Source: Candidatus Omnitrophota bacterium (GTDB taxonomy: Bacteria; Omnitrophota; Gorgyraeia; Gorgyraeales; Gorgyraeaceae). From it: a stretch of 64,000 bases of DNA. The DNA is taken from the NCBI GenBank assembly GCA_043814965.1, contig JBDRJN010000015.1, positions 1,503 to 65,502 of the forward strand. Direction: 5' to 3'. This document shows, in pieces, positions 4,488 through 53,009 of the stretch. The notes under the pieces were generated by a model. The model made no database searches, was not told where the DNA came from, and was given only the letters and a program-made list of their open reading frames with translations. The position numbers and the translations under genes were made by a program. Within the stretch, counting starts at the first letter, position 1, and each line of letters opens with the position of its first letter.

Positions 4488-4540
4488 CACGACATAAGAT
4501 GCAAGTCACATGTGTCTTGAAACTTGTGTCGTGAGACTTG
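4488..4540. repeat. Family-C palindromic repeat between ruvA and ruvB
   Basis: cacgaca...tgtcgtg outer stem, caagt-cacatgtg-...acttg inner; tail tgagacttg shared with copy at 5593-5647. Confidence 0.6.
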
Positions 4541-5592: not shown

Positions 5593-5647
5593 GACACAAG
5601 CTGCAAGCCGCCATACACATGTGGCTTGTGTCTTGAGACTTGTAACC
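5593..5647. repeat. Family-C palindromic repeat after ruvB
   Basis: gacacaagc...gcttgtgtc 9-bp stem, inner cacatgtg palindrome, tail ttgagacttgt. Confidence 0.6.
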
Positions 5648-7571: not shown

Positions 7572-8611
7572 TGTTAAAGTTATCGGATTTTGATTATGGC
7601 CTGCCAAAAGAATTGATCGCCCAGTATCCTGCTGATAAGAGGGATGAAAGTAGGCTTTTGGTTTTAGATAGGGCTACTGGAAATATCTCACATCGGGCCT
7701 TCAAAGATATCATAGGATACTTCAGGGAAGGCGATATTCTAGTGATAAATAATACAAAGGTCGTGCCGTCAAGGCTGGTCGGCACGAAAGAGACAGGCGG
7801 CAAGGTCGAGGCGCTTATTTTAAATAATGAGGGTGATCTTGAAAAGCTCTCTGAATACGAAACTCTTTTAAAACCAGCCAGGGGATGCAGGATAGGCGCG
7901 AAATTATTTTTTGATAATGGCAATCTAAAAGCTGAGATCACGAGGATAGAGAATGGCAGAAGGTTTTTAAAGTTTGATGGAAAAAAAGACTTATTGAAAC
8001 TCTTGGATGAAAAAGGCCAGATGCCGCTTCCTCCGTATATAAAACGCGAAGATGAAGTATCGGATAGAGATAGATACCAGACCATCTATGCTTCTAAGAT
8101 AGGTGCAGTAGCTGCGCCTACGGCAGGGTTGCATTTTACAAAAGAGGTCTTAGCTAACCTGTCTGAAAAAGGTGTCAGCTTAGAAGAGCTTACGTTGCAT
8201 GTAGGATATGGCACATTTAAGCCTGTAAAAGAAGAAGACATTGCAAGGCATAAGATGGAAGAAGAGTTCTTTGAGGTAAGAGAAGGCCTTGTCAATAGAT
8301 TGAATAAGAGGGCTGCAAGATCTATCGTTGTGGGGACTACTACCTGCAGAGCGCTTGAAACTGTTGGAAATAAGAAAAATATCAATTTTGTAGACGGTAT
8401 CTATAGCGGCTGGACAGATAAGTTTATATATCCGCCCTATAAATTTAAGAACGTAGATTGTCTTTTGACGAATTTTCATCTTCCGAAGACAACGCTTCTT
8501 ATGCTTGTCAGCGCATTCTCTGGAAGAGAGCTTTTATTTAAGGCATACAAAGAAGCAATAAAGGAGAAATACCGCTTTTATTCCTATGGCGATTGCATGT
8601 TGATAATATAG
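7568..8611 (+). CDS. queA: S-adenosylmethionine:tRNA ribosyltransferase-isomerase QueA
   Basis: 347 aa; FDYxLP, LPPYI, GTTxxRxLE motifs. Confidence 0.92.
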   Translation: MMLKLSDFDYGLPKELIAQYPADKRDESRLLVLDRATGNISHRAFKDIIGYFREGDILVINNTKVVPSRLVGTKETGGKVEALILNNEGDLEKLSEYETLLKPARGCRIGAKLFFDNGNLKAEITRIENGRRFLKFDGKKDLLKLLDEKGQMPLPPYIKREDEVSDRDRYQTIYASKIGAVAAPTAGLHFTKEVLANLSEKGVSLEELTLHVGYGTFKPVKEEDIARHKMEEEFFEVREGLVNRLNKRAARSIVVGTTTCRALETVGNKKNINFVDGIYSGWTDKFIYPPYKFKNVDCLLTNFHLPKTTLLMLVSAFSGRELLFKAYKEAIKEKYRFYSYGDCMLII

Positions 8612-8615
8612 TAGG

Positions 8616-8699
8616 AGCGGGTCCTGCCAGCTGATTTACCCCGTAAGTGCTCGCCTTCGCTGTGCGCTTCCGGGGTCCCCAAATCAGCTGTCACCCGCT
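8616..8699. repeat. GC-rich palindromic element immediately after queA stop (GTAGGAGCGGGT...ACCCGCT); REP-like
   Basis: agcgggt/acccgct and cagctgattt/aaatcagctg inverted repeats; starts with GTAG like the other REPs in the window. Confidence 0.55.
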
Positions 8700-8739
8700 A
8701 TGAATGTTATTATTTATGTTTATGTTCGATTAGGTAGTA

Positions 8740-8907
8740 TTTAGGGTCTTCGGCACATTGGAAGCTTTTCGGCAAATGTCCGCAAGGATTTACAGCGAGA
8801 AAATGGCGGAACTGACTTGTGATCAGAAGCTATAGTGAATTCCGCCAAATTTTAGAGCTGTAAACCGTAGCGGACGGCGAAAAGATTCTGTGCCGAACGG
8901 CCCTAAA
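8740..8907 (+). ncRNA. ~168-nt extended imperfect hairpin (candidate structured RNA or MITE-like element) between queA and tgt
   Basis: Nested complementary arms: tttaggg/ccctaaa, ttcggcaca/tgtgccgaa, cttttcg+gtccgc/gcggac+cgaaaag, tttacagc/gctgtaaa, aaaatggcggaa/ttccgccaaatttt; GC content above local background. Confidence 0.4.
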
Positions 8908-8925
8908 TGCTAGCTAAAATATTAA

Positions 8926-10079
<1,154 letters not shown>

Positions 10080-15890: not shown

Positions 15891-16832
15891 ATGAAGAATG
15901 AAATTAAGCAGGCATACAAGATGATGGAAGGCTGTTCCTTGTGCCCAAGGAATTGCGGGGTGAACCGCTTAAAGGGAGAGATCGGGTTCTGCAAGGCAGG
16001 CTTAAAGCCAATGTTCTCGAGCGCTCATCTACACTTTGGCGAAGAGCCGCCTATATCAGGAAAAAATGGATCCGGTACTATTTTTCTTACACATTGTAGC
16101 TTGAGGTGTTGCTTTTGCCAGAATCATCCTATAAGCCAATTAAGGCAAGACAATGTTGTAGGAATAGAACAATGTTCTATCCCTACAACAAAATTGTCAG
16201 ACATCATGTTAGGTTTAGAGAAGCAGGGAGCTCATAATATAAATTTTGTCACCCCCACTCATTATATGCCTCAAGTTTTGGAAGCTATAATGATTGCAAA
16301 AGATAAGGGCTTAACAATCCCGATAGTCTATAACTGCGGCGGGTACGAATCTTTTGAGGCTCTTAAACTTCTTAAGGGTGTAGTAGATATATATTTGCCT
16401 GACATGAAATATTCCGATGATCTAGTAGCCAAAAAGTATTCTTCGGCTCCTGATTACTTTGAGGTCAATAAGATTGCTATTAAAGAAATGTATGATCAGG
16501 TCGGGATGTTAGAAGTTGAAGATGGCATAGCGAAAAAAGGATTACTTATCAGGCACCTGGTATTGCCTGGCAATATTCAAGGCAGCGAAAAGATATTCTC
16601 ATTTATAATAAAAGAATTATCGCCTGATATTTATGTAAATATAATGGCGCAGTATTATCCATGTCATCTGGCGCATAAATTCCCAGAAATCAACCGCAGG
16701 ATCACGCATAAAGAATACATGGATACCATCAGGCTTGCCAAAAAAATGGGCTTAAAAGGCGGCTTCAGGCAGGTGCTTTCCACCATAAACAGGCTAAAGA
16801 TCCCTGAATGGACAGATGATCTAAAGGAATAA
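15891..16832 (+). CDS. Radical SAM protein, PflA/PflX-like activase family
   Basis: 313 aa; CxxxCxxC as CSLRCCFC; N-terminal extra Cys cluster CSLCPRNCGV. Confidence 0.75.
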   Translation: MKNEIKQAYKMMEGCSLCPRNCGVNRLKGEIGFCKAGLKPMFSSAHLHFGEEPPISGKNGSGTIFLTHCSLRCCFCQNHPISQLRQDNVVGIEQCSIPTTKLSDIMLGLEKQGAHNINFVTPTHYMPQVLEAIMIAKDKGLTIPIVYNCGGYESFEALKLLKGVVDIYLPDMKYSDDLVAKKYSSAPDYFEVNKIAIKEMYDQVGMLEVEDGIAKKGLLIRHLVLPGNIQGSEKIFSFIIKELSPDIYVNIMAQYYPCHLAHKFPEINRRITHKEYMDTIRLAKKMGLKGGFRQVLSTINRLKIPEWTDDLKE

Positions 16833-16919: not shown

Positions 16920-18056
16920 ATGTATATTCCTCAAATCCAATTAAGTAATCTTAAAGGTATAATTAAGCCTCAAAAAGTTATAGTAATTTATGGGCCCAGG
17001 AGGTGTGGCAAGACTACTCTCTTGACGCATTTTTTAAAGGACGTAAAAGATAAATATTTATTTGTTAGTGGTGAAGATATAATAGTTCAAGATTTTTTAA
17101 GCAGCCAATCCATAGAAAAACTCCGTAGTTTCGTAGGAAGCAATAAGCTTTTAGTTATCGATGAAGCGCAAAAGATAAATTATATAGGTTTAAATCTAAA
17201 GTTGATAATCGATCATATGCCTGGGATTAAAGTTATCGCTACAGGTTCTTCATCGTTTGGCCTGGCGCATGAGATAGGAGAGCCTCTTACTGGAAGGAAG
17301 TTTACATTAAAGATGTTCCCTCTTTCTCAATTGGAATTATCTAATATTGAAACAAGGGCTGAGACAATAGCAAGGCTTGAAGAGCGCCTTATATATGGTT
17401 CTTATCCAGAGGTAGTTACAGCTGATGATATATCACAGAAAGTATTATATCTTAAAGAGATGATAAGTTCATATCTCTATAAGGATATCCTGGAGCTTGA
17501 AGGGATAAGGCATTCAAGCAAGATTGTCAGGCTATTGCAATTGTTGACCTTTCAGATAGGAAAAGAGGTCTCATATACCGAACTTGGAAGACAACTCGGT
17601 ATGAGTAAGAACACCATAGAAAAATATCTGGATCTTTTGGAAAAGGCATTCGTTATATTTAAACTGCGAGGTTTTAGCAGGAGTATCAGGAAGGAGATAT
17701 CAAAGAACCCCAGGTATTATTTTTATGACACAGGCATAAGAAATGCGTTGATCAACAATTTTAATATCCTATCTATGCGCGATGATATTGGCATGTTATG
17801 GGAGAACTATATTATTGTAGAAAGATTAAAGGCGCAGGAATATCTACACATGCAGGTAAATAATCATTTCTGGAGGACATATGACCGCAAGGAGATAGAT
17901 TTTATTGAGGAAAAAGATGGGATGCTGCATGGATATGAGATAACATGGTCAAATGCTAAGCGTAATGCGCCTAAAGAATGGCTCGATAAGTATAAAGCCG
18001 ACTATAAGGTTATTACCAAGGAAAATTATTTGGATTTTATAGTGTTAAATGTATAA
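16920..18056 (+). CDS. AAA family ATPase with C-terminal DUF4143 domain
   Basis: 378 aa; Walker A GPRRCGKTT, Walker B LLVIDEAQ; architecture typical of AAA_14+DUF4143 proteins. Confidence 0.75.
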   Translation: MYIPQIQLSNLKGIIKPQKVIVIYGPRRCGKTTLLTHFLKDVKDKYLFVSGEDIIVQDFLSSQSIEKLRSFVGSNKLLVIDEAQKINYIGLNLKLIIDHMPGIKVIATGSSSFGLAHEIGEPLTGRKFTLKMFPLSQLELSNIETRAETIARLEERLIYGSYPEVVTADDISQKVLYLKEMISSYLYKDILELEGIRHSSKIVRLLQLLTFQIGKEVSYTELGRQLGMSKNTIEKYLDLLEKAFVIFKLRGFSRSIRKEISKNPRYYFYDTGIRNALINNFNILSMRDDIGMLWENYIIVERLKAQEYLHMQVNNHFWRTYDRKEIDFIEEKDGMLHGYEITWSNAKRNAPKEWLDKYKADYKVITKENYLDFIVLNV

Positions 18057-18076
18057 AAAGATACATAAAATTTCTC

Positions 18077-18104
18077 TTGATTAAATTAGCGTTTTTGGTA
18101 TAAT
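18077..18104 (+). promoter_or_regulatory. Predicted sigma70-type promoter (TTGATT-16-TATAAT) upstream of 1656-aa gene
   Basis: Consensus hexamers seen directly. Confidence 0.5.
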
Positions 18105-18110
18105 ATACAT

Positions 18111-18145
18111 TAGCCTTCATGGGAAAAGGGAAAGGCTATTTTTTT
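18111..18145 (+). promoter_or_regulatory. Leader hairpin + T7 tract (attenuator/terminator-like), copy 1 of a conserved leader motif
   Basis: tagccttcatgggaaaagggaaaggcta + ttttttt; near-identical motif at 37003-37046. Confidence 0.5.
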
Positions 18146-18194
18146 ACCTAAAATAAACAAGGCTTTAAAAAACCATAGTAAAATAGTCCCTCAT

Positions 18195-18243
18195 CCCGAA
18201 GTTTCGGGACTCGAGACGAATTTTACTTCGTAAAATTCGAAGG
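18195..18243 (+). promoter_or_regulatory. Family-D SD-adjacent hairpin module (cccgaagtttcggg + cgaattttac-ttc-gtaaaattcg followed by aagg SD)
   Basis: Perfect 10-bp stem ending 1 nt before the SD; same module at 29693-29731 and 34258-34295. Confidence 0.5.
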
Positions 18244-18249
18244 ACAAAA

Positions 18250-21200
18250 ATGAAGAACCTTAAATCCATAAAAAAAACAGTATCCATAGTACTTGTAATT
18301 ACATTTTTCCTTACATCCAGCGCATATTCATACGAGGCAAGGCCAACTATACACCTAAGAAGCAATATCTCATTCGGGCCGGACAATAAAACAGAGTTCT
18401 CACAGCGTTTTGATGGAACCATTATAATGCAGCATTATGGCCTATCTAAGATCTTACCTAAAGTCCAGGCAATGCAGTATATTAATGAAGCCCAAAAGAA
18501 TAACATAGTCAACGTTCTTCTTGGCGATAAAAAGACACTTGTGCCTATTGCTCGGATTAATGCCATTGATTTAATTGATGATGGAGACTTGGTCGTCGGC
18601 CTAAATTATAACAATGAACCAGTCATAGCTATAAGCGACTCTTTGCTTACCCCTGAAAAACTCGGCGAGACAGAGATTGCTCCGACCGGCTTTACTCTTG
18701 AAGGCACTGAACTATTATTTTCAACAACTTTAAAATTCACTGTAAATGAGATAAATGATGCAATAAAGAAATATAACGATGGCGGTGTTTATGATTCATT
18801 TACAAAGACCATACAGAAGACAGAGCTGGTCAAATTAATAGAAGATATGGTGAGTAACAAGGAAGAATATACTCCGGAGGCCCTAAAGGATAAACTCGTT
18901 GAAGGCAATAATAAAACCGAGAGCCTTGCAGCTATCGCAGCAATATACTTACGCGGCGGGATGTTCTCTATGGGGACACCAAATATTCTTGAAAGTAACC
19001 TTGGGTTAGGCCTAGGTTTAGGACTGTCAAAACAAAAGAATAGCAGTGATTTTAATAAATTCGGTCAGTGGTATAAATGGGTATCGTCAGAAGTTGCTAT
19101 GGATGACTTGAATATGGACATGTTCAGGGATTATGATTATAGGTCAGTGGGACCAGTGTTAAAACCTGAAATGGTATTTCGTCTTGGTTTAATGTGGGGC
19201 CAAATGGCGTTACAGAAAGCAAAAGAGGCTGGCATAGAAAATAGAAAAGTACTTATAGCAAGGGATGCCAGGAAAATAGAACCAGAGTTAGTAGAGGCAT
19301 TGGCTGCATCACTGCGGTATGCGGGGCTTGATGTTGTTTATACTGCGGAAGATGGCCCGAATGCAGTAACATCTTATTCCTGGGCCGCTCAGGAGATCAA
19401 GCCTCTGATGAGTATATTTATTACTGCAAGCCATGTATCTATGCCAAAAGACCAGATCGTAAGGGGTTTTAAAGTAGCTATGTTGAATGAAGAAGGCGGC
19501 AATCTGGTCAGTTTAACTTCCAAAGAAATAAAGAACCAATCAAAAGATGCTGTTAAAGACCTGATAGAAAATCCTGAAAAGATAAAAGATTTAGAATCTC
19601 AAAAGAAAGGAAGTTTTATTGCTGCTAATGTCGATGAAAATTGCATAAGGATGTGTTCACTTGTGGGCGAAGTTGCTAGTAGTGGAGGCTCTCTCTATGA
19701 TCTGGCAAGAGAGTTAGAATCCTCTGATTCACCGGAAGATGTTATTACAAAGTGGGAAAATAAAGTCGGGCACACAGAGCCTTTAAAAGGCATGAAAGTA
19801 GTTGTGGAGGGTTCCCATACGCCGAGCGGAAACCTAGCAGCTAATACATTCAAGCAATTAGGAGCAGATGTGGTCTTGATAAACGGAGATATCCTAGAGG
19901 TAGAGGGCGAACATAATGCTGACCCATCCAAAGATAAAAATTTAACGCAGTTGAAGCAAACAATAGATACTGAAGGCGCTGATTTTGGTATAGCATTTGA
20001 TCTTGACGGCGATAGAGGTGCTATTGTTGTGCCTAAAAGATCCGAAGATGATTCTGGTATCAGTTTCGAGACTCTTGCTCCTGACAGGCTTATAGTTTCT
20101 TTGTTGCCATATTATATGGAAAAATTAGGATATGATCCTACAGTTACAGGTAAAAAAGTAGGTGTTATACGCGATGTATTAGGGACGTTCGGCGTAGATG
20201 ACCAGGCAGAGGCTTTGGGGATAGAGGCATTCCAGACAGACGCTGGCTATGTATTCTTGAAAGCAAAGAGAGCTGATCTATTACAGCAGGGCTATGGGAT
20301 ACCTATATATGGCGAACTTTCAGGCCACACCTGGCAGGATGTCACAGGGGAATTTGAGAATCCTGTGGCTGTTGCAGCTGTATTTAGCGTAATGGTAAAG
20401 GATAAAAAATATAAAGAAGATAATACCACCACATCCTTAAATCCTTTCTACGAAGCATTTACCGAAAGCACTATACCTTATAAACAGGCATCCAGGTCTC
20501 AGCCGCTCTTTGCCGGGGAATTTTTGTCAGAACTTTCGTCAATGCCGGCTAATAATACAGGATGGGCTTATAATCCTGATAATCCTACAAAACCTCCGCA
20601 ATTAATAATTGCCTTGGGAAAAGACGAAGGGATCAAGAGATTGCAGAAAGAGTTTACCGTAGGTAAATCTTATAATACACCGGCAGGGGAGTTGATTGTA
20701 AAGGAATTTAATACATATCAGGATGCAGTAGATGAAGGAGGGCTTTATAGATTTGCTGATATTGTATTTGAGCAGGATGGCAATGTCGCAGGCAGGTTTA
20801 TATTCAGGGCTTCTTCAAATGACCCGACATTTGTGTGTTCTTTCGAGACCCCGGTATGGGTAAATGAAAATACTGATTCAAAGACAGTAAACGACAGGTA
20901 TATTTCAATCGGAGGGATTGTTTTTGATTGGCTGGAGCAGAATAAGATCGCCAGGGTGACAGGAGATGTTGATTATGCCAATAAAGAATCCACGGAAAAG
21001 GTTGTTCTGGTTTATAGAGGTGCTAAAAATACAGAAACAGCAGCTGATGTAGCTGTAATTAGCAGTTCTGAAGATGCGAATATTCCAGAAGAAGAAACAA
21101 CTTTAATGCAGAATTTTGGCTTAGATGCTATACTAAGGCCAGAAACTGCAAGAGACCTTCTTACACCTTTATTAAGTAAAGATAACCCTACGATAAAGAT

Positions 21201-23220
21201 GTATACAACAAAGGATGATTTTAAAGAAGTATCTTTTGACGATACGATCCTGTCTTTTATAGAAGATAAAAATCTTATATTAGGAAGAAAAGGCGATGAA
21301 TTAGTAGTGGCTTATTCTACGCCTATTTCTAGATCAAGACGTGATTTCCTGAAAGGCTTAGGTGCTATGGCTATCGGGACAAGTCTATTGGGTTTTCTAG
21401 CATCATGCGAAGAACCTACTAAGCCAAAGGATCCTGTGATCCCGGATGAAGGAGAGCTTAATACTCATCCATATGAATTTATGAGAAAAGGGCTTTCTCT
21501 AAGTGAAGTATCTAAAAAAGCAGCGGATTGGATCCTGGGGCAAAAGTCCCCAGTTAGCTGGGTAATAAGCTATGGCTCTACGCCAGAACATGCGAGCGAT
21601 AATATAGCCTGGAGCTTTGACCAGGGAACGACAATGACTGTATTTTCACAAATGGATGGAGAATATTTAGCACTTGCAAAAATAATCGCTGATAAAATGG
21701 TTGCAGAGCAGGATACAAACGATGATACATGGTATGATGGATATATGGGTAACTATGTCCCAGAAAAGGGCAATAAGTTAGTAGGAAATATAGTTAGCGT
21801 AGGAAGAGGCCTTGTAGAAAAATATCTTGTAGAAACAAGTGAAACTAAATATATTGAAAGCGCTAAAAAAGCAGGAGATTCAATACTTTTAAGATACTGG
21901 AATACGCTAGGTAGCGATAAAGGGTTTTTTAGAGGCGGCCTTGAAAATGGCGTAGATGTTTCCTGGGCATCCACAGAGCATAATTCAAGAGCAGCTATAT
22001 TCTATTATAGATTGTGGGTAGCTACAGGAGATGATAAATACAAGGACGTGGCTTTAAAAATAGCTAATTGGCTAAAAAGTGAGATGTGGGCAGGAGATCA
22101 TTTCCATGTAGGATATGATCATGGTACTAATATAAATCTGTACTACAATCAAGATGCAGATGCACAAGTTACGCCAATTTTACTTTTCAACATGCTTAAG
22201 GAAGATGGAATAGTGGGGGATGAATTCGATCCAAATAAGTTCAATACACTTAAATATCTCGATGACAATTATAGGCATAAGATCACTTTTATTGGTACAG
22301 ATGGTTTGAAAAGGACAGTAGACCTATATGGAAAGGTTAAAGGCATCGTTCACGTATGGCCTGAAGTAAGTGATAATATTGCAGCTGTATGCCAGGCTTG
22401 GGGCAATACTATAAGAAAAGACGAGACATTAACTGACATAGCAAAGCTACAGTATGTTGATGGCGGCATACCTTATTTATTAGGTAAAGACGGAGTCCCG
22501 TATGGATGGACTGACCAGGGCCCTGGAAGTTTTCCTCATCCTTCAATAGCTTCAAGTATATCTTTTATAGCCGCAAAAGACCTTGGCCCATATTGGTTCC
22601 CTGTTATAAAAAGAAGTACAGATACTGATATTGGTACTAAGTTTGAGGATAGTGCGATCGAGGATATCGCAGTAGCAGGAACAGGTGTTGCGGCTACTTT
22701 AGTAACAGGACTTACAGGATCAGAAGTTAGTATTGAAGACATCTTAAACATAGAAGATAAAGTAGAGATCAAATTGGACGGAGAAACAGTAGAAGATATT
22801 GAATATTTAAAGCTTATGAATAAAGCAAGCTGGTTGGGTAGCACTGGTACCAAGAGCAGTGACGGAGTATATCATATCAACCTGCTTAAAGACAAGATAG
22901 ACCCTGTTGTCTTTAGCGGGGAGTATGTAGAAGATGAGCCGTATGAGTTTTTGCAACGTTCTAGAGAAGAACTCAACAAAAATAAAACCCCTGTTATTTT
23001 AGTGACAAGCGATGTACAGGAAAAAAGGCTTAAAAATGATATAAGGTTTAGAGCAATGCTTGACCATGAGGAATTATTTATAGTAAGGGCAGAGCCTGAA
23101 AGGGTGGAGTCTCTTATCGCTCTAGGCACAGACGGCATATCTTTTGATGTTAGCCAGATCAGTGTTACTAAACTGATAGAGAATAAAGACATAATCATGT
23201 CTTATCTGCACCAGAAGTAA
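18250..23220 (+). CDS. Giant exported protein (1656 aa): Sec signal peptide; degenerate alpha-D-phosphohexomutase (PGM/PMM)-like domain; internal Tat-motif/lipobox segment; C-terminal (alpha/alpha)6-like domain
   Basis: N-term MKNLKSIKKTVSIVLVITFFLTSSAYS; PGM/PMM-like motifs IARDARK (cf GRDGR), ITASHVSMP (cf TASHNP), FDLDGDRG (cf FDGDGDR), GELSGH (cf GEESGH), RASSNDP (cf RASNTTP); internal SRSRRDFLKGLGAMAIGTSLLGFLASC. Confidence 0.6.
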   Translation: MKNLKSIKKTVSIVLVITFFLTSSAYSYEARPTIHLRSNISFGPDNKTEFSQRFDGTIIMQHYGLSKILPKVQAMQYINEAQKNNIVNVLLGDKKTLVPIARINAIDLIDDGDLVVGLNYNNEPVIAISDSLLTPEKLGETEIAPTGFTLEGTELLFSTTLKFTVNEINDAIKKYNDGGVYDSFTKTIQKTELVKLIEDMVSNKEEYTPEALKDKLVEGNNKTESLAAIAAIYLRGGMFSMGTPNILESNLGLGLGLGLSKQKNSSDFNKFGQWYKWVSSEVAMDDLNMDMFRDYDYRSVGPVLKPEMVFRLGLMWGQMALQKAKEAGIENRKVLIARDARKIEPELVEALAASLRYAGLDVVYTAEDGPNAVTSYSWAAQEIKPLMSIFITASHVSMPKDQIVRGFKVAMLNEEGGNLVSLTSKEIKNQSKDAVKDLIENPEKIKDLESQKKGSFIAANVDENCIRMCSLVGEVASSGGSLYDLARELESSDSPEDVITKWENKVGHTEPLKGMKVVVEGSHTPSGNLAANTFKQLGADVVLINGDILEVEGEHNADPSKDKNLTQLKQTIDTEGADFGIAFDLDGDRGAIVVPKRSEDDSGISFETLAPDRLIVSLLPYYMEKLGYDPTVTGKKVGVIRDVLGTFGVDDQAEALGIEAFQTDAGYVFLKAKRADLLQQGYGIPIYGELSGHTWQDVTGEFENPVAVAAVFSVMVKDKKYKEDNTTTSLNPFYEAFTESTIPYKQASRSQPLFAGEFLSELSSMPANNTGWAYNPDNPTKPPQLIIALGKDEGIKRLQKEFTVGKSYNTPAGELIVKEFNTYQDAVDEGGLYRFADIVFEQDGNVAGRFIFRASSNDPTFVCSFETPVWVNENTDSKTVNDRYISIGGIVFDWLEQNKIARVTGDVDYANKESTEKVVLVYRGAKNTETAADVAVISSSEDANIPEEETTLMQNFGLDAILRPETARDLLTPLLSKDNPTIKMYTTKDDFKEVSFDDTILSFIEDKNLILGRKGDELVVAYSTPISRSRRDFLKGLGAMAIGTSLLGFLASCEEPTKPKDPVIPDEGELNTHPYEFMRKGLSLSEVSKKAADWILGQKSPVSWVISYGSTPEHASDNIAWSFDQGTTMTVFSQMDGEYLALAKIIADKMVAEQDTNDDTWYDGYMGNYVPEKGNKLVGNIVSVGRGLVEKYLVETSETKYIESAKKAGDSILLRYWNTLGSDKGFFRGGLENGVDVSWASTEHNSRAAIFYYRLWVATGDDKYKDVALKIANWLKSEMWAGDHFHVGYDHGTNINLYYNQDADAQVTPILLFNMLKEDGIVGDEFDPNKFNTLKYLDDNYRHKITFIGTDGLKRTVDLYGKVKGIVHVWPEVSDNIAAVCQAWGNTIRKDETLTDIAKLQYVDGGIPYLLGKDGVPYGWTDQGPGSFPHPSIASSISFIAAKDLGPYWFPVIKRSTDTDIGTKFEDSAIEDIAVAGTGVAATLVTGLTGSEVSIEDILNIEDKVEIKLDGETVEDIEYLKLMNKASWLGSTGTKSSDGVYHINLLKDKIDPVVFSGEYVEDEPYEFLQRSREELNKNKTPVILVTSDVQEKRLKNDIRFRAMLDHEELFIVRAEPERVESLIALGTDGISFDVSQISVTKLIENKDIIMSYLHQK

Positions 23221-23242
23221 TAACAATAAGAATGTTTTAATA

Positions 23243-23283
23243 AAAGGCTAAGCTTATAAAAAGGCTTAGCCTTTTTATTTTCT
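23243..23283 (+). terminator. Rho-independent terminator after the 1656-aa gene
   Basis: aaaggctaagc...gcttagccttt stem followed by ttatttt. Confidence 0.65.
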
Positions 23284-23287
23284 AAAA

Positions 23288-23317
23288 CAGTAGGACACAT
23301 CTAAATATGCCCTACTG
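23288..23317. repeat. REP-like hairpin caGTAGGacacatctaaatatgcCCTACtg (left flank of RAYT gene)
   Basis: 7-bp inverted arms with GTAG at the 5' end; 22-nt core repeated at 23946-23967. Confidence 0.55.
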
Positions 23318-23414
23318 TAATTCTATGTAAATAAATTAGTTATGTAAATTGGTTATATTTTTTTCTAACTCGTTGAAAGAAAATGCATATTTTAATTGTC
23401 TTATATAGTAGGGG

Positions 23415-23903
23415 GTGATAGTTATGGGAGATATAAGACGATACAAAGAAGATGGATATATTTATTTTATAACAACTAATACATACTCTAATAAAGGAAT
23501 ATTTTTAAAAGAAAAGCCGAGTTTATTCCTAAAATCTATTATTTCTTATTATAGGTTTGTATTTAGATTCAAACTGTATACATATTGTATTATGCCAGAT
23601 CACATACATATGCTTATACAGCCTCTTACTAAACAATACGACATATCAACTATAATGAAAGAGATCAAGGGTACGTTTGCAAGAGAATATAATATTATGA
23701 TACGTAAGAGAGGAGATATTTGGCAGAGGAAGTTCTACGATTCTATAATAAGAGATGAAGAGAGCTTGCTTATTAGAATTAATTATACTTTTGAAAATCC
23801 AGTAAGGAAAGGAATAGTCAATAAAGCCACGGAATATAAATTTTCGAGTGCTAGGTCATATATTTTAGGAGAGGAAGATTATGTTACTGATAGATATAAT
23901 TAA
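23415..23903 (+). mobile_element. REP-associated tyrosine transposase (RAYT; IS200/IS605-like Y1 HUH transposase)
   Basis: 162 aa; HUH motif PDHIHMLI; catalytic-Tyr region INYTFENPVRKGIV (RAYT signature Y-x-x-x-N-P-V-R-x-G-[LI]-V); flanked by REP-derived repeats; codon usage more AT-rich than neighbours. Confidence 0.75.
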
Positions 23904-23945
23904 CCAATTGACCGAACATTATATATTTGTTATAGTTATATACGA

Positions 23946-23967
23946 ACACATCTAGATATGACCTACT
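23946..23967. repeat. Partial REP copy acacatctagatatgacctact (right flank of RAYT; 20/22 identical to 23296-23317)
   Basis: Direct comparison of the two flanks. Confidence 0.55.
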
Positions 23968-23978
23968 TAGGAGGGGAG

Positions 23979-26048
23979 ATGAAAGATTTGTCTGTATCAG
24001 CGCAATTTATTAAAGGCGTAGGGCCTTTAAGGATAAAGCTTTTAAGGCGCCTTGGCATAGAGACCGTAGAGAACCTATTGTATTTTCTTCCCCGTAGATA
24101 CGAAGATAGAAGCAATATTAAAAGCATAAAAGATCTTACGCCTGGTAGTTTTGAGACAATGAAAGTAAAGGTCCTTACTTTTGGCGACAGGACTTCAAAA
24201 AAAGGCATGAATATATTTAAACTCGCGCTGGGGGATGCTACAGGAGTTATCCACGCTGTGTGGTTCAATCAGCCTTTCATGAAAGATAAGTTCAAGGCAG
24301 GTGATGAGCTTATTATATACGGAAAGGTCGAGAAGAATATCTACTTACAGGTAAATAATCCTGAATACGAAGTCATTTCCGGCACAAAAGACGATTCTAT
24401 ACACATAGGCCGCATTGTCCCTATATATCCCTTGACTGAAAACTTGAACCAGCACTGGATAAGGAGCATATTGCATAATGCAGTCACTAACCATGTGAAT
24501 GACATAAAAGAGATGCTTCCATATGAGATAAGACAGAAAAACAATTTGATATTGCTTAAAGAGGCAGTAAGGAATATCCATTTTCCAGTAAGCGAGGTTG
24601 TGTTGGAAAAAGCAAAATATAGGCTTATCTTTGATGAGTTCTTGTTGCTGCAGTTAGGCATAACCCTAAAAAAGGCAAGGGTCAAGCTGGACCTCGATGG
24701 CATCTCCCATAATAAAGAAGGAGATATGCTGGATAGGTTTAGAAAATCTTTGCCATTTATATATACAAACTCTCAGGAAAGGGTTTCAGGAGAGATAAGA
24801 GATGACATGAAAAGCCCCAAGCCTATGAACAGGCTTCTCCAGGGCGATGTCGGCAGCGGAAAGACAATAGTTGCTATAGAGTCATTGGTCCGAACTGTCC
24901 AAAATGGTTTTCAGGGCGCTATTATGGTACCCACTGAAATACTTGCTTATCAGCATTATAAGAACATCAAGAGCCTTTTAAAGGATTTTGATATAGATGT
25001 AGTTTTATTGTCAGGAGACTTGAAACAAAGTGAAGCAAGAAGGCGTAAGCACATGATAGAGGTGGGAGAGGCAGATATAGTGGTCGGGACCCACTCACTC
25101 ATACAGGAAGGAGTCAGGTTTAAAAAACTTTCTCTTATAGTGATAGATGAACAGCATAAGTTTGGCGTGATGCAAAGAGCATTTCTAAAATCAAAATCAA
25201 ATAATCCAGACATATTGGTAATGACAGCCACTCCTATACCGAGAAGCCTTGCATTGACCATATATGGAGACCTTGATATATCAGTTATAGACGAGCTTCC
25301 GCCTGGAAGGCGCGAGATAAAGACATTGTATTTTGAGGGAAAAAATAGGACCAAGTCTTACGATATCGCAGAAGAACAAGTGAAGATAGGCAGGCAAGTG
25401 TATATAGTGTACCCTGTAATAGAAGAAAAATCCTCGAGCGATCTCAGGGCTGCAAAAAAGATGTACAAGGAATTATCAGATAATTTTAAGGATCTTAAGG
25501 TAGGGCTTATACACGGAAAGATGAAATCATCCGAAAAAGAATCTATAATGAAAGATTTCAAGGAAAAAAATATTGATATATTGGTCTCGACAGTTGTGGT
25601 AGAAGTAGGCCTCGATATCCCTAATGCAACAGTGATGATAATAGAACATGCTGAGAGGTTTGGCCTGAGTCAACTTCATCAGCTGCGCGGAAGGATAGGA
25701 AGGGATAAATATATATCTTACTGCATATTAATAGGAAACCCCAAGACAGATGAGGCAAGAAAAAGATTGGAGGCAATGCTTAGTACGCAGGATGGTTTTA
25801 AGATAGCTGAATATGACCTTGATATCAGGGGGCCTGGGGAATTTTTTGGTACTAGACAACATGGCCTTCCAGAGATTAAAATAGGGAATATAATAAGGGA
25901 TAGGCTGATATTGGAAGACGCGAGAAAAGAGGCTATTGGTTTGATACAAAAGGACAGGTTTTTACGAATGGGCCAAAACAGGCTTTTAAAAGAGTCCTTA
26001 GAAAAAAAGTTTGGCGTGGACAATCTGGAATTAGTCAACGTAGGATAA
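23979..26048 (+). CDS. recG: ATP-dependent DNA helicase RecG (start placed at second ATG with GGAGGGG SD; track ORF begins 23958 inside the REP copy)
   Basis: Wedge/OB domain, helicase motifs GDVGSGKT, DEQH, C-terminal RecG region; N-term MKDLSVSAQFIKGVGPLRIKLL typical. Confidence 0.88.
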   Translation: MKDLSVSAQFIKGVGPLRIKLLRRLGIETVENLLYFLPRRYEDRSNIKSIKDLTPGSFETMKVKVLTFGDRTSKKGMNIFKLALGDATGVIHAVWFNQPFMKDKFKAGDELIIYGKVEKNIYLQVNNPEYEVISGTKDDSIHIGRIVPIYPLTENLNQHWIRSILHNAVTNHVNDIKEMLPYEIRQKNNLILLKEAVRNIHFPVSEVVLEKAKYRLIFDEFLLLQLGITLKKARVKLDLDGISHNKEGDMLDRFRKSLPFIYTNSQERVSGEIRDDMKSPKPMNRLLQGDVGSGKTIVAIESLVRTVQNGFQGAIMVPTEILAYQHYKNIKSLLKDFDIDVVLLSGDLKQSEARRRKHMIEVGEADIVVGTHSLIQEGVRFKKLSLIVIDEQHKFGVMQRAFLKSKSNNPDILVMTATPIPRSLALTIYGDLDISVIDELPPGRREIKTLYFEGKNRTKSYDIAEEQVKIGRQVYIVYPVIEEKSSSDLRAAKKMYKELSDNFKDLKVGLIHGKMKSSEKESIMKDFKEKNIDILVSTVVVEVGLDIPNATVMIIEHAERFGLSQLHQLRGRIGRDKYISYCILIGNPKTDEARKRLEAMLSTQDGFKIAEYDLDIRGPGEFFGTRQHGLPEIKIGNIIRDRLILEDARKEAIGLIQKDRFLRMGQNRLLKESLEKKFGVDNLELVNVG

Positions 26049-28119: not shown

Positions 28120-29171
28120 TAATACTTGTATTAAACAGTGGAAGCTCGTCAATAAAATATAAGCTCTTTGATATATCGGAAGATTCAGAGACTTTCCTCG
28201 ACAAGGGGATAGTCGAGAGGATAGGTGAAAAAGTCCCCAGCCATAAAGACGCGCTTTCCATGATCCTCAGCAAGATGGATAAGCCAATAGAGGCAGTAGG
28301 GCATAGAGTGGTCCACGGAGGAGATATTTTTAGAGAATCTACTATTATAGATAACGAAGTCATAAGGGCCATAGAATCTTTTAATGAACTAGCTCCGCTT
28401 CACAATCCTCCAAGTATCTTTACTATAAATGAATCAAGAAAAGTGCTTAAGAACGTAAAACATGTAGCAGTGTTTGATACCTCATTTTATCAGACTATGC
28501 CGGAACATGTGTATCTATATGCAATACCTTATGAGTATTATAAGAAATACAAGATCCGTAAATATGGTTTTCATGGGACCAGCCATAGATATGTAGCAAT
28601 AAAAGCCAGTTCTATGTTAAATACTTCTCTAGACAAACTAAAACTTGTCACATGCCATCTTGGTAATGGCTGCAGCATCACTGCGATAAAATACGGCAAG
28701 GCTATAGATACTAGCATGGGTTTTACTCCACTGGGAGGGCTTATTATGGGCACTCGCTCAGGCGACCTGGACCCTACCATAGTATCTTTCATAATGGAGA
28801 AAGAACATCTTGATATAAAAGAGGCTATAGATATATTGAATAAAAAAAGCGGTATCTTAGGTATATCAGAGATAAGTAATGACATGAGAGAGATAATAAA
28901 AAAGAAAGATACTGACAAGAGGGCAAAGCTTACCATGGATATGTTTTTTTATAGGATAAGAAAATATATAGGCGCATACATAGGGATAATGGGAGGAGTG
29001 GATGGAGTCGTATTTACTGGAGGCATAGGAGAGAACCAACCAGACCTTATGAAAGATGAGTTTGGCGACATGGTGGATGATAAAAATAAGATACTTGTCA
29101 TACCTACAGACGAAGAACTGATGATAGCAAAAGATACATATAAAATAGTCAAGGATCAACACCAAAATTAG
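28116..29171 (+). CDS. Acetate/butyrate kinase family protein; length (351 aa) closer to butyrate kinase than canonical ~400-aa AckA
   Basis: N-term MIILVLNSGSSSIKYKLF; ASKHG-family motifs; coupled to pta-like gene. Confidence 0.8.
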   Translation: MIILVLNSGSSSIKYKLFDISEDSETFLDKGIVERIGEKVPSHKDALSMILSKMDKPIEAVGHRVVHGGDIFRESTIIDNEVIRAIESFNELAPLHNPPSIFTINESRKVLKNVKHVAVFDTSFYQTMPEHVYLYAIPYEYYKKYKIRKYGFHGTSHRYVAIKASSMLNTSLDKLKLVTCHLGNGCSITAIKYGKAIDTSMGFTPLGGLIMGTRSGDLDPTIVSFIMEKEHLDIKEAIDILNKKSGILGISEISNDMREIIKKKDTDKRAKLTMDMFFYRIRKYIGAYIGIMGGVDGVVFTGGIGENQPDLMKDEFGDMVDDKNKILVIPTDEELMIAKDTYKIVKDQHQN

Positions 29172-29196
29172 TAGGGGACACTTAAGTGTCCCCTAC
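29171..29196. repeat. REP hairpin GTAGGGGACACTTAAGTGTCCCCTAC
   Basis: Perfect 11-bp stem, TTAA loop; overlaps ack stop and the track's GTG start of yceD. Confidence 0.7.
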
Positions 29197-31926: not shown

Positions 31927-31996
31927 GACAAGTCACAAGATACAAGTTGCAAGTCACAAGTACAAAGCATGTGACTTGTGTCTTGAAACTTGTGGT
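31927..31996. repeat. Family-C palindromic repeat (caagtcacaag x2 + tgtgacttgtgtcttgaaacttgtg)
   Basis: Shares catgtg-cttgtgtcttgaRacttgt core with 4488-4540 and 5593-5647. Confidence 0.6.
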
Positions 31997-36817: not shown

Positions 36818-36846
36818 CTGGTAGGGGAGCCTTAAGGCTCCCCTAC
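36818..36846. repeat. REP hairpin GTAGGGGAGCCTTAAGGCTCCCCTAC (copy a)
   Basis: Perfect 11-bp stem with TTAA loop. Confidence 0.75.
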
Positions 36847-36885: not shown

Positions 36886-36914
36886 TGTAGTAGGGGAGCT
36901 TTAAAGCTCCCCTA
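36886..36914. repeat. REP hairpin variant GTAGGGGAGCTTTAAAGCTCCCCTAC (copy b)
   Basis: Same arms, TTTAAA loop. Confidence 0.75.
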
Positions 36915-37002
36915 CCGAAGAAAAGGTTCAGAAAAATAACATAATTTTACTTGCCAATAGAGGCATTTTTTGCTATATTAATGCCTATATAGAACACACC
37001 AT

Positions 37003-40806: not shown

Positions 40807-40830
40807 CACGCTGTGTTATTAAATAACATG

Positions 40831-40870
40831 TAGCCTTGTAGGGGAGCCTTAAGGCTCCCCTACAAGGCTA
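40831..40870. repeat. Extended REP hairpin tagccttGTAGGGGAGCCTTAAGGCTCCCCTACaaggcta (18-bp stem)
   Basis: Perfect inverted repeat seen directly; immediately after giant gene stop. Confidence 0.8.
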
Positions 40871-41076
40871 CACAGGTTCCCCTACATATTTAGGAGATAA
40901 TAATTAGATTATTATAGTATCAACTAGTTGCAGTTATTAGAGTTACAAAAACTATATAAACTATGCAAAAAAAGTATTTTCTATCCTTGAATTTTTAGAA
41001 ATATGTGGCATACTTGAAATAGAGAAATAGGAGGCAGAAACACTGAGACTTTGAAAACTTAATGTTTAACCAGTCA

Positions 41077-41217
41077 AAGGGCAAACCCAGAGTAATCTGG
41101 GGGCGCAAAGCTACGGGTCCTTGGTTATAAGGATGGCCGAGTTACCAAGGATAGCCGAGCTAGTTGATTGATGTGAAGGAGGAAGGATCAAATATCTCGG
41201 CTTTTTTGTTGCTTAAA
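41077..41217 (+). ncRNA. sRNA-like unit 1 (conserved 5' block aagggcaaacccagagtaatctggggGcgcaaagctacgggtcc, ends in intrinsic terminator)
   Basis: Block duplicated at 41337-41379; 3' gccgag...ctcggc + T6. Confidence 0.45.
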
Positions 41218-41336
41218 AAGGAGGCAGCGAAATAATAAGAGGAGGCAGGGTAAGACGCTTTAAGGAGGCACACTTTTTAGTTAATCCTTAAGACAATTGA
41301 ATATTAGGTATTATTTATAATAATACTTTCAGTAAA

Positions 41337-41504
41337 AAGGCAAACCCAGAGTAATCTGGGGACGCAAAGCTACGGGTCCTAAATCAGGAAGTAGCTGACA
41401 CTTAAGTGTCAGCTGCAGTTGATTAGGGCAGCCGGGTCGCCAAGAAAGTTAATTTATTTTTAGGATAGCCGAGCTTACGTTTAATACAAAGCTCGGCTTT
41501 TTTA
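41337..41504 (+). ncRNA. sRNA-like unit 2 (same 5' block, internal perfect hairpin agctgacacTTAAgtgtcagct, ends in terminator agccgagctt...aagctcggct + T6)
   Basis: Tandem paralog of unit 1. Confidence 0.45.
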
Positions 41505-49145: not shown

Positions 49146-49265
49146 TGTTAGGGGAGCCTTAAGGCTCCCCTACAATGTGGATAATTAGAATATGGGGGAC
49201 GCGTTACAAAAACATACACTTTGGCGCCTGATCCGCGCTAGGGTGGCCTCCTTCAAATAACGCGT
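49146..49265 (+). repeat. 120-nt composite repeat copy 1: REP hairpin (tAGGGGAGCCTTAAGGCTCCCCTAc) + 67-nt long-range hairpin (gacgcgtta...taacgcg)
   Basis: ~95% identical to 52796-52917. Confidence 0.7.
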
Positions 49266-49273
49266 TCTCCACT

Positions 49274-49301
49274 TTGAAAAACGAATAAAATATGATATAA
49301 T
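49274..49301 (+). promoter_or_regulatory. Predicted sigma70-type promoter TTGAAA-16-TATAAT for the 1148-aa gene
   Basis: Hexamers seen directly. Confidence 0.45.
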
Positions 49302-49369
49302 ATATCAATATTATATCGTTCAAAAATAGAGTAATATTAAACATGGTTTTTAACAAAAAGGAGGGTAAT

Positions 49370-52795: not shown

Positions 52796-52917
52796 TAGTA
52801 GGGGAGCCTTAAGGCTCCCCTACAATGTGGATAACTAGAATATAGGGGGACGCGTTACAAAAACATACACTTTGGCGTCTGATCCGCGTCAAGGTGGCCT
52901 CCTTCAAATAACGCGCC
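52796..52917 (+). repeat. 120-nt composite repeat copy 2 (REP hairpin + long-range hairpin); followed by C6T6 tract (terminator-like)
   Basis: Sequence identity with 49146-49265; ends ...taacgcgccccccttttttat. Confidence 0.7.
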
Positions 52918-52954
52918 CCCCTTTTTTATCAATATTGAATTAATGCGTTTTAAG

Positions 52955-52983: not shown

Positions 52984-53009
52984 TTTTAAAAATAAGGTAG
53001 GTATTGTAT

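Follow-up and report, generated by a model that had tools for sequence, protein, structure and literature searches.

When a transposase gene and a population of short palindromes share one stretch of DNA, the question arises whether the one maintains the other. The locus considered here lies upstream of recG in a stretch of 64,000 nucleotides (nt) from contig JBDRJN010000015.1 of a Candidatus Omnitrophota bacterium (the whole 64-kb stretch is referred to below as the window), where a gene for a RAYT (REP-associated tyrosine transposase, TnpAREP family; REP, repetitive extragenic palindrome) occurs together with several GC-rich palindromes that start with the tetranucleotide GTAG. Work on RAYTs and REPs has dealt almost entirely with Proteobacteria, the Omnitrophota are an uncultured phylum, and no description of a RAYT/REP system in these organisms was found in the literature searched, where the single paper naming both RAYT and Omnitrophota treats another topic. 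The original prediction on this locus regarded the gene as a RAYT accompanied by the REP population that it maintains. A different answer is favored here, with a probability of about 0.68: the RAYT gene belongs to a self-contained cassette with private ends, and the GC-rich REPs belong to a second RAYT lineage, which is linked to comM.

Judged by its sequence, the open reading frame (ORF) at 23415-23903 is a RAYT-family protein of the Y1 HUH type, as had been proposed. It scored 117.1 bits against the RAYT model of NCBIfam (NF047646, REP_Tyr_transpos; cut-off 80 bits) versus 29.6 bits against the IS200 model (NF033573; cut-off 55 bits), it matched Y1_Tnp of Pfam with 48.8 bits, and its best match in the PDB was the Escherichia coli TnpAREP structure 4ER8 (E = 1.8e-10, residues 4-146). 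The 4ER8 alignment places PDHIHM over PEHMHC and Y121 over Y115, the catalytic tyrosine of TnpAREP. Both predicted motifs are intact, that is, the HUH histidines H60 and H62 (codons 23601-23603 and 23607-23609) and the tyrosine of the RAYT motif INYTFENPVRKG, Y121 (codon 23784-23786), and no sign of gene decay is apparent; these residues together with W100, Q101, N125 and P126 are invariant across an alignment of 19 homologues. The E. coli enzyme contacts its GTAG guide through W94, Q95, E100, H101 and R104 (PMC6006769), and the 4ER8 alignment shows W100, Q101 and R110 of the window protein as identical to W94, Q95 and R104, the other two contacts being changed (E to D, as in subclasses 2.5 and 2.7, and H to S). 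Identity to this group 2 protein, counted from the same alignment, is about 29%. The likelier start is ATG 23424, which gives a product of 159 residues; NCBI lists the identical sequence as MFH1479008.1 ('MAG: transposase [Candidatus Omnitrophota bacterium]', MAG being metagenome-assembled genome), on a contig of 122,557 bp. The gene is the only RAYT copy detected in the window by tblastn, close homologues (66-75% identical) are found in metagenomic contigs, and searches of plasmids and of phages returned no relative above 31% identity.

The ends of the cassette were delimited by comparison with related loci (numbered with L). Nucleotide homology between the window and L001-L004 spans 23285/6-23967 with 71% identity (blastn), and these borders coincide with the first base of the left hairpin region and the last base of the right repeat. 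The predicted left hairpin CAGTAGG...CCTACTG at 23288-23317 is a significant DNA fold (-6.4 and -9.2 kcal/mol; z = -4.7 for the top strand and -6.4 for the bottom strand) with a GTAG foot, located 107 nt 5' of the RAYT start codon, and the right end carries the complementary CTAC. The 22-nt repeat reported on both flanks was also recovered (23295-23316 and 23946-23967, identical at 20 of 22 positions); the window contains no further copy with three or fewer mismatches, and none is expected by chance. What does not hold is the derivation of these repeats from the GC-rich REPs of the window. The cassette has conserved ends of its own, each a GTA[G/A]-tagged repeat built on the AT-rich palindrome CATATCTAGATATG, which in the DNA sampled was seen beside the window RAYT lineage only. 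In six distinct cassettes (seven loci) the termini match as inverted repeats of about 22 bp at 17-19 of 22 positions, and as direct repeats at just 11-15 of 22 with the exception of the window copy, whose ends resemble a direct repeat since the hairpin on its left is complete and holds both GTAGG and CCTAC. The feet of the homologous cassettes are GTAAG, GTAGC or CGTAT instead of GTAGG. From end to end, the alignment resolves a conserved succession of non-coding blocks: the left terminus (A)GTA[G/A]G-N-CATATCTA[G/A]ATAT, TGAAAGAAAA, TGTGTCTTATATAG and the Shine-Dalgarno sequence GGAGGTGA before the gene, and TAACCAA, TTATAGTTA and the right terminus ATATCTAGAT[A/G]TG-N-C-N-TACT after it.

Two repeat searches bear on the relation of these ends to the rest of the genome. 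The sample for the first was about 946 kb, comprising the window and the related loci that were fetched, and in it the 14-nt core of the AT-rich palindrome (two mismatches allowed) was confined to the ends of window-type cassettes, apart from three matches that lack GTAG; the palindrome is thus not a dispersed family. Highly repeated flanking 16-mers are a core feature of RAYTs, strong only in groups 2 and 3 (Bertels 2017, PMC5581495). When this flanking test was run inside the window, all 16-mers of both intergenic stretches beside the RAYT gene proved to be single-copy, and the commonest 16-mers (eight occurrences, both strands counted) came without exception from the GC-rich REP. Within the available DNA, the property by which a RAYT is tied to its REPs was therefore not found for this gene.

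The enrichment of GTAG-headed palindromes in the window was confirmed. The palindrome GTAGGGGA-N3-TTAA-N3-TCCCCTAC is present in six copies where 0 are expected, and these are true REPs of the double-foot type, which read alike on both strands because GTAG stands at one end and CTAC at the other. All six are extragenic and located 0-90 nt 3' of plus-strand stop codons, and the hairpins fold as DNA with -12.8 and -14.5 kcal/mol. As to the individual palindromes proposed, GTAGGGGACACTTAAGTGTCCCCTAC at 29171 and GTAG+GGCACACTTCAGTGTGCC at 2531 are both present. Three of the five copies claimed for GTAGGGGAGCCTTAAGGCTCCCCTAC are exact (36821, 40838 and 52798), and the other two carry one mismatch (49148, TTAG...) and two mismatches (36890), none being expected. 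What reads 'GTAGGAGCGGGT' at 8611 consists of a stop codon with a long, unrelated hairpin behind it and is not a member of the family. GTAG-headed REP hairpins also extend beyond this locus, as had been anticipated: a scan for the above frame in one genome per species located it in at least 46 assemblies, most of them Omnitrophota, and in at least 107 stretches. Among those listed, 34 are labelled Omnitrophota or Omnitrophica and most others are bins labelled Planctomycetia; one of these bins matches parts of the window with 69-76% DNA identity. Variation at the three inner base pairs is nearly always compensatory (GGT/ACC 74, CGT/ACG 14, CAC/GTG 6 and others, among the matches listed). The prediction of a RAYT withstands both of the outcomes that it had set out as refuting, a failed match to the RAYT models and a lack of such hairpins elsewhere.

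The probable partner of these REPs was met in other genomes. When the REP-centred stretches listed were searched with the window RAYT by tblastn, RAYT genes appeared in L032, L036 and L042, with 38-41% identity to the window protein in the protein alignment and 39-44% over the tblastn segments. Each of them has a GC-rich REP 10-16 nt 5' of its start codon and another just 3' of its stop codon. Two more loci, L131 and L133, were fetched independently and show the same REP flanks and the same linkage, the RAYT of this second lineage being located directly 3' of a comM-type Mg-chelatase gene in five of five genomes (L032, L036, L042, L131, L133). The flanking REPs are of the GTAGGGGA type in four genomes and of the GTAGGCC type in Candidatus Gorgyraea atricola, where both the flanking and the nearby REPs read GTAGGCC(A/G)GGTTTAAACC..., so that the REP co-varies with the comM-linked lineage. 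Beside the RAYT of L032 stands the GAGCC variant, the main REP variant of the window. This lineage passes the RAYT model, comprises at least 287 proteins at E <= 1e-10, and has every hallmark of a domesticated REPtron (fixed locus, co-varying double-foot REPs, presence of the REP in at least 46 assemblies). As a published rule, a tnpAREP goes with whichever REP family lies at its flanks (PMC6006769); applied to the REP-flanked comM-linked RAYTs, this rule makes it most likely that the GC-rich REPs of the window are partners of a comM-linked RAYT encoded outside the 64 kb. That the window RAYT maintains these REPs is thus unsupported in two respects, the 16-mers at its flanks being unique in the window and the GC-rich REPs flanking the comM-linked lineage in five other genomes.

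Several observations weigh against this assignment or limit it. The counts of repeats and of RAYT genes are those of the 64-kb window. No comM gene and no second RAYT were found within the window, and of ten NCBI matches checked, none fell within the accession range of MFH1479008, so that a comM-linked RAYT of the same assembly was not recovered among them. Cross-recognition of the GC-rich REPs by the window enzyme is possible, since the left hairpin shares the GTAGG/CCTAC foot and residues that contact GTAG are conserved. The right end and the ends of most homologues fold weakly (z between 0 and -1.5), which renders a single-strand hairpin model of the ends thermodynamically not compelling. 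Finally, the differences in context among genomes of this divergence (66-75% protein identity) could reflect rearrangement around a vertically inherited gene.

Three candidate features of the cassette were considered and abandoned, in whole or in part. The expectation of a conserved hairpin at both ends was only partly upheld: the left end of the window copy folds well, and no significant hairpin was found in the right repeat copy (z = -0.1) nor in the ends of most homologues; the aligned sequences show the left outer stem retained in four of seven distinct left ends, with two compensatory changes. A 'GTAGGGG' at 23408, 10 nt 5' of the RAYT start codon, was examined as a half REP and is instead the ribosome-binding region, since homologues carry GGAGGTGA in that place. 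The low GC content of the cassette (0.282 versus a window mean of 0.401, the lowest of any 682-bp stretch of the window) was rejected as evidence of recent transfer: in the loci compared (window, L001, L005, L032, L036, L042, L131, L133) both RAYT lineages lie about 5-12 GC points below their host DNA, and about 10 in most. The comM-linked RAYTs depart from their hosts toward AT to an equal extent, so that low GC is a family trait.

Under the favored reading, the cassette would encode a catalytically intact single-strand DNA endonuclease and strand-transferase of the TnpAREP Y1 HUH family. By analogy with E. coli TnpAREP and with the TnpA of IS200/IS605, the enzyme would bind the folded single-stranded end through its GTAG foot; Tyr121 would then cleave by way of a 5'-phosphotyrosine, with His60 and His62 holding the metal ion (PMC8266576), and the DNA strands would be rejoined by the same enzyme (PMC8266576). 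The gain of the cassette would have taken place in the interval from a radical-SAM gene to recG, where it forms the final part of a lineage-specific block of 7.1 kb. As to what this activity brings about, movement of the whole cassette can be proposed only tentatively, action in trans on the GC-rich REPs appears improbable, and local rearrangement alone takes the weight that these two outcomes leave.

The possibility of movement leads to the alternative that survives best, although it is held below even odds: that the cassette represents an insertion sequence similar to IS200/IS605, active and autonomous, whose transposase is of the RAYT clade, and that it still moves as a unit and leaves footprints of end processing at its borders. 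The related cassettes known are a handful of metagenomic contigs, and their comparison provides the evidence for this view. Cassettes with the same boundaries are located between unrelated genes, in at least six unrelated contexts; L001/L003 and L002/L004 encode an identical protein and share the right flank and differ in their left flanks; the cassette is missing from the radical-SAM/recG junction of five related loci. At L122 (953-1156) a truncated cassette retains the left end, the leader and 17 codons only, and the right end is tandemly duplicated over 83 nt in L120 (6480-6650) and over 34 nt in L124 (1456-1570). Short iterated units of 6-9 nt, which resemble AAAAGTA at the left border and TACTAT/ACTTAT at the right one, lie just outside the termini (borders of L001, L002, L005 and L118), and their number varies between otherwise identical cassette copies. 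Some leaders form a hairpin which pairs an anti-Shine-Dalgarno sequence TCACCTCC with the Shine-Dalgarno sequence of the RAYT gene (L001 9960-10012, L118 342-394, L005 8659-8712), with compensatory differences between copies; the hairpin is absent from the window copy (23384-23435). The mRNA of the IS200 transposase has a similar leader hairpin that sequesters its Shine-Dalgarno sequence.

On the other side, no genome with more than one window-type cassette was seen, relatives on plasmids and phages do not exceed the 31% identity given above, and the protein falls below the cut-off of the IS200 model and above that of the RAYT model. The ends are inverted and are not same-strand hairpins, a geometry unfit for simple single-strand excision. 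The divergence of the RAYTs (66-75% identity) is close to that of RecG among the relatives (about 70%) and thus compatible with vertical descent, and the low GC shared with the comM-linked lineage gives no sign of recent transfer. A metagenome scan with the clade alignment listed at least five loci, for which reason per-genome copy number and target-site statistics remain thin. A related and somewhat more doubtful proposal is that the 682-bp unit is a moving 'REPtron' undergoing whole-cassette transposition, intermediate between an IS200-like element and a RAYT that has been domesticated; the AAAAGTA/TACTAT units and the duplicated right ends might then be, with the same degree of doubt, footprints of repeated cleavage and rejoining at GTAG-tagged ends. 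According to the literature there is no evidence for mobility of tnpAREP genes. If the proposal were true, such an element would coexist in one phylum with the fully domesticated comM-linked RAYT and its REP family.

Less probable than either is that the window RAYT spreads or maintains the GC-rich GTAGGGGA... REPs and that its flanking repeats are degenerate copies of them. The foot GTAGG...CCTAC of the left end is that of the REPs, the W, Q and R residues that contact GTAG are conserved (PMC6006769), no other RAYT was found within the 64 kb, and the six REP copies make these palindromes frequent there. Yet no GC-rich REP flanks the gene, the flanking 16-mers are all unique, and what flanks it are conserved ends of the cassette, whose palindrome is a different one, rich in AT, and whose foot in the homologous cassettes is GTAAG, GTAGC or CGTAT. 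In addition, about 43 kb of contigs that carry window-type RAYTs contain zero GTAGGGGA REPs, and elsewhere the GC-rich REP family, its GAGCC variant included, flanks the other RAYT lineage. The remaining idea, that the GC-rich palindromes are terminators or protein-binding sites conserved in Omnitrophota with no tie to a transposase, is very improbable: all six copies do follow plus-strand stop codons closely, the hairpins are very stable and many have DnaA-box-like arms, but no T-run follows any of the six, one 26-mer frame recurs in at least 46 assemblies within several arm types, the palindromes bracket and co-vary with a RAYT in five genomes, as a REPtron is defined operationally (PMC8266576), and a host role as terminator or stabiliser would be compatible with REP identity.

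With the self-contained cassette as the preferred reading, the locus can be placed among the systems already described. It shares its protein family with the REPtrons of E. coli, Pseudomonas and Stenotrophomonas (Nunvar 2010; Bertels & Rainey 2011; Ton-Hoang 2012; Corneloup 2021), keeping the HUH motif, the catalytic tyrosine and the GTAG-contact residues W, Q and R in a gene that is single-copy in the DNA seen, and it resembles them in layout, the gene being bracketed by inverted GT[AG]G-tagged palindromic units (PMC8266576). It differs from them in that its flanking units are not dispersed, being found nowhere else in the window and, over the 946 kb, at window-type cassette ends apart from the three GTAG-less matches; in that its location is not conserved among relatives; and in that the abundant REPs of its genome are of another type, which in other Omnitrophota flanks another RAYT lineage. 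TIRtrons, or TIRYTs, contain a RAYT-like gene within terminal inverted repeats (TIRs) that have no relation to GTAG REPs (Di Nocera et al., 2013, PMC3733652), and, judged on layout alone, the cassette agrees with them, as its ends are inverted (17-19 of 22 positions) and unrelated to the GC-rich REP. The window repeats are also partly self-complementary, and only some TIRs of that class form repeat families (PMC3733652). In effect the cassette resembles a REPtron that lacks dispersed REPs, an arrangement for which Di Nocera et al. use the term TIRtron. Unlike the TIRtron pattern, they are GTA[G/A]-tagged and short (about 22 bp), and the protein scores as a RAYT equivalog.

Likeness to the IS200/IS605 family (IS200, IS608, ISDra2) consists of a unit of about 0.7 kb with a single Y1 HUH gene, palindrome-containing ends just inside the boundaries and discrete borders in different contexts. 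By its protein model (29.6 bits, cut-off 55) and by the geometry of its ends, which are inverted and not same-strand, the cassette is not an IS200/IS605 element; moreover, no multi-copy genome was seen and no conserved target tetranucleotide was found among the few cassettes. A further resemblance is to the IS-like RAYT groups of Bertels et al. The GC-rich REPs, in turn, are similar to the double-foot REPs of TnpAY1 subclass 2.4 (Quentin et al., 2018, PMC6006769) in having 5' GTAG and 3' CTAC, in being extragenic and multi-copy, in flanking tnpAREP in relatives and in that a GTAG-headed palindrome may sit in frame within a gene, as at 16154-16190 of the window. They differ in occurring in Omnitrophota, in their short and perfect 26-nt frame with a TTAA/TTTAAA loop, and in being often extended by TTATCCACA (DnaA-box-like) or by other recurrent arms. 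All parts of the locus thus belong to known kinds, and what is new is the phylum and the side-by-side occurrence of a domesticated and an unfixed RAYT lineage. The contrast between a RAYT fixed next to comM and a RAYT with private ends at variable loci offers a natural comparison for the passage from a mobile element to a REP spreader retained by the host. For annotation, a RAYT and GTAG palindromes in one window are not necessarily partners, and it is the flanking repeat that decides.

The neighborhood of the cassette was compared with five related loci in which RecG is 70-71% identical and the gene order recJ, radical-SAM gene, recG, rsmD-like, coaD-like, pta and ackA is conserved, most of the five also having an rpmB-like L28 gene after recJ and before the radical-SAM gene. 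The end of the radical-SAM gene is separated from recG by 2-10 nt in all five loci and by 7.1 kb in the window, where an AAA_14/DUF4143 ATPase gene, a 1656-aa gene, a terminator-like hairpin and the cassette intervene. Since the two genes abut in the relatives, the cassette is, from this comparison of gene order, a lineage-specific gain, but merely the last 682 bp of a larger one; it is the upstream context of recG that has changed. The extra genes (16920-23220) encode the ATPase, of 378 aa, and the 1656-aa protein, in which phosphoglucomutase-like domains I and II are contained in a much larger polypeptide. The start of recG, which had been thought to be displaced and overlapped by the right repeat, is in place. 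All that the repeat overlaps is an in-frame ATG farther 5' (23958), with which the longest ORF opens, and the annotated start is ATG 23979, 11 nt past the end of the repeat at 23967, which itself lies just 5' of GGAGG. From this ATG the first peptide is MKDL, as in the five related loci, and the RecG of the contig in NCBI, like nearly all listed homologues, has 689 aa; with the conserved start located past the repeat, no displacement took place.

The cassette probably supplies the immediate upstream signals of recG at present. It follows a terminator and contains a candidate promoter that faces outward (Table 1), on account of which recG expression may depend on it, and transcription of recG from within the cassette is a reasonable inference. 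Promoter-like sites in the cassette region are no more numerous than in shuffled sequences, and the homologous cassettes hold similar hexamers at the equivalent place.

Table 1. Coordinates of the cassette, its surroundings and the GC-rich REPs (positions in the window).
Feature	Position	Strand	Remarks
Terminator-like hairpin and T-run	23242..23275	+	14-pair stem; 0.1 expected in shuffles; closes the 1656-aa gene, just outside the cassette
Whole RAYT cassette	23286..23967	+	682 bp, 28% GC: left end, leader, gene, right end
Cassette-adjoining DNA			left flank ends ...TTTTCTAAAAC; right flank opens TAGGAGGGGAGATG
Left-end hairpin CAGTAGG-ACACATCTAAATATGC-CCTACTG	23288..23317	+	GTAG foot and CTAC around degenerate CATATCTAGATATG palindrome
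Left copy of 22-nt repeat, ACACATCTAAATATGCCCTACT	23295..23316	+	
Shine-Dalgarno-like GGGGGTGA of RAYT gene	23410..23417	+	homologues show GGAGGTGA at the equivalent position
RAYT/TnpAREP-family gene	23424..23903	+	159 aa from ATG 23424; maximal ORF from GTG 23415
Promoter-like TTGACC-17-(TG)TATAGT	23908..23936	+	inside right end, facing recG; 10/12 match
Right end, right copy of 22-nt repeat, ACACATCTAGATATGACCTACT	23946..23967	+	inverted match to left terminus 17/22
recG	23979..26048	+	689 aa; Shine-Dalgarno GGAGG 23970-23974; first gene 3' of cassette
GC-rich REP, GACAC variant (GTAGGGGACACTTAAGTGTCCCCTAC)	29171..29196	.	first G is last base of ackA-like stop codon
GC-rich REP, GAGCC variant	36821..36846	.	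paired with copy at 36890
GC-rich REP, GAGCT/AGCTC variant	36890..36915	.	compensatory inner-stem changes
GC-rich REP, GAGCC variant	40838..40863	.	nested inside longer palindrome 40829-40872
GC-rich REP, TTAG foot (1 mismatch)	49148..49173	.	followed by TGTGGATAA arm
GC-rich REP, GAGCC variant	52798..52823	.	followed by TGTGGATAA arm

The surroundings of the REP cores show regularities of their own. The nonamer TTATCCACA/TGTGGATAA, the DnaA-box consensus, forms the arm of an extended GC-rich REP in the window (49176-49184 and 52826-52834) and in loci L011-L117. It is found with at most one mismatch on at least one side of 41 of 123 REP cores, and 40 of the 63 exact TTATCCACA boxes present in 805 kb adjoin a core; in the comM-linked REPtrons a box of this type is placed directly 5' of the RAYT start codon. 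An alternative arm is TTATTAACA. Perfect palindromic extensions of at least 4 bp are added to 31 of the 123 cores, and some Omnitrophota MAGs carry the core inside longer inverted repeats that recur, such as TAACAAACCTTGTTGACTTTCAACA[REP]TGTTGAAAGTCAACAAGGTTTGTTA or GGGACGGTTCTATTTTT...[REP]...AAAAATAGAACCGTCCC (L012, L019, L038, L040, L043, L047, L066, L086, L088, L101, L107 and others).

There are further palindromes with a GTAG head. The one at 16154-16190, TGTTGTAGGAATAGAACAATGTTCTATCCCTACAACA, is 37 nt long, lies inside the radical-SAM ORF 15891-16832 and coincides with seven extra residues of the encoded protein relative to four relatives; its appearance is that of a REP-like insertion within the gene, in frame and in a variable loop. 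At 2466-2555, GTAG+GGCACACTTCAGTGTGCC (2531) comes after a hairpin GGCAAAGGCC...GGCCTTTGC, and this segment is 88% identical over 91 nt to L001 2885-2974; similar GCAAAGGCC-type hairpins in L103, L110 and L013, apparently at the equivalent site, have a GC-rich REP at their center instead of the AGCACATTTCAATGTGCT of the window. A direct repeat of 82 nt, 89% identical between its copies (49194-49275 and 52845-52926), follows the REP and its TGTGGATAA arm and precedes ORFs 49343-52789 and 53004-54722. It has no match in Rfam at the gathering threshold and may be a shared leader or regulatory RNA.

Elsewhere in the window, the region 8611-8935, 5' of a tgt-like gene, is a long, GC-rich and self-complementary intergenic stretch with two long hairpins, for which Rfam gave no credible match. 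Imperfect palindromes of a second intergenic family, which lack the GTAG tag and are rich in CAAGT/ACTTG, occupy three sites, 4488-4533, 5596-5643 and 31934-31994. Two tandem riboswitch aptamers of the c-di-GMP-I-GGC class (41071-41150 and 41330-41445; 63.2 and 59.4 bits, gathering score 59) are located 5' of an ORF of 2464 aa (41750-49144).

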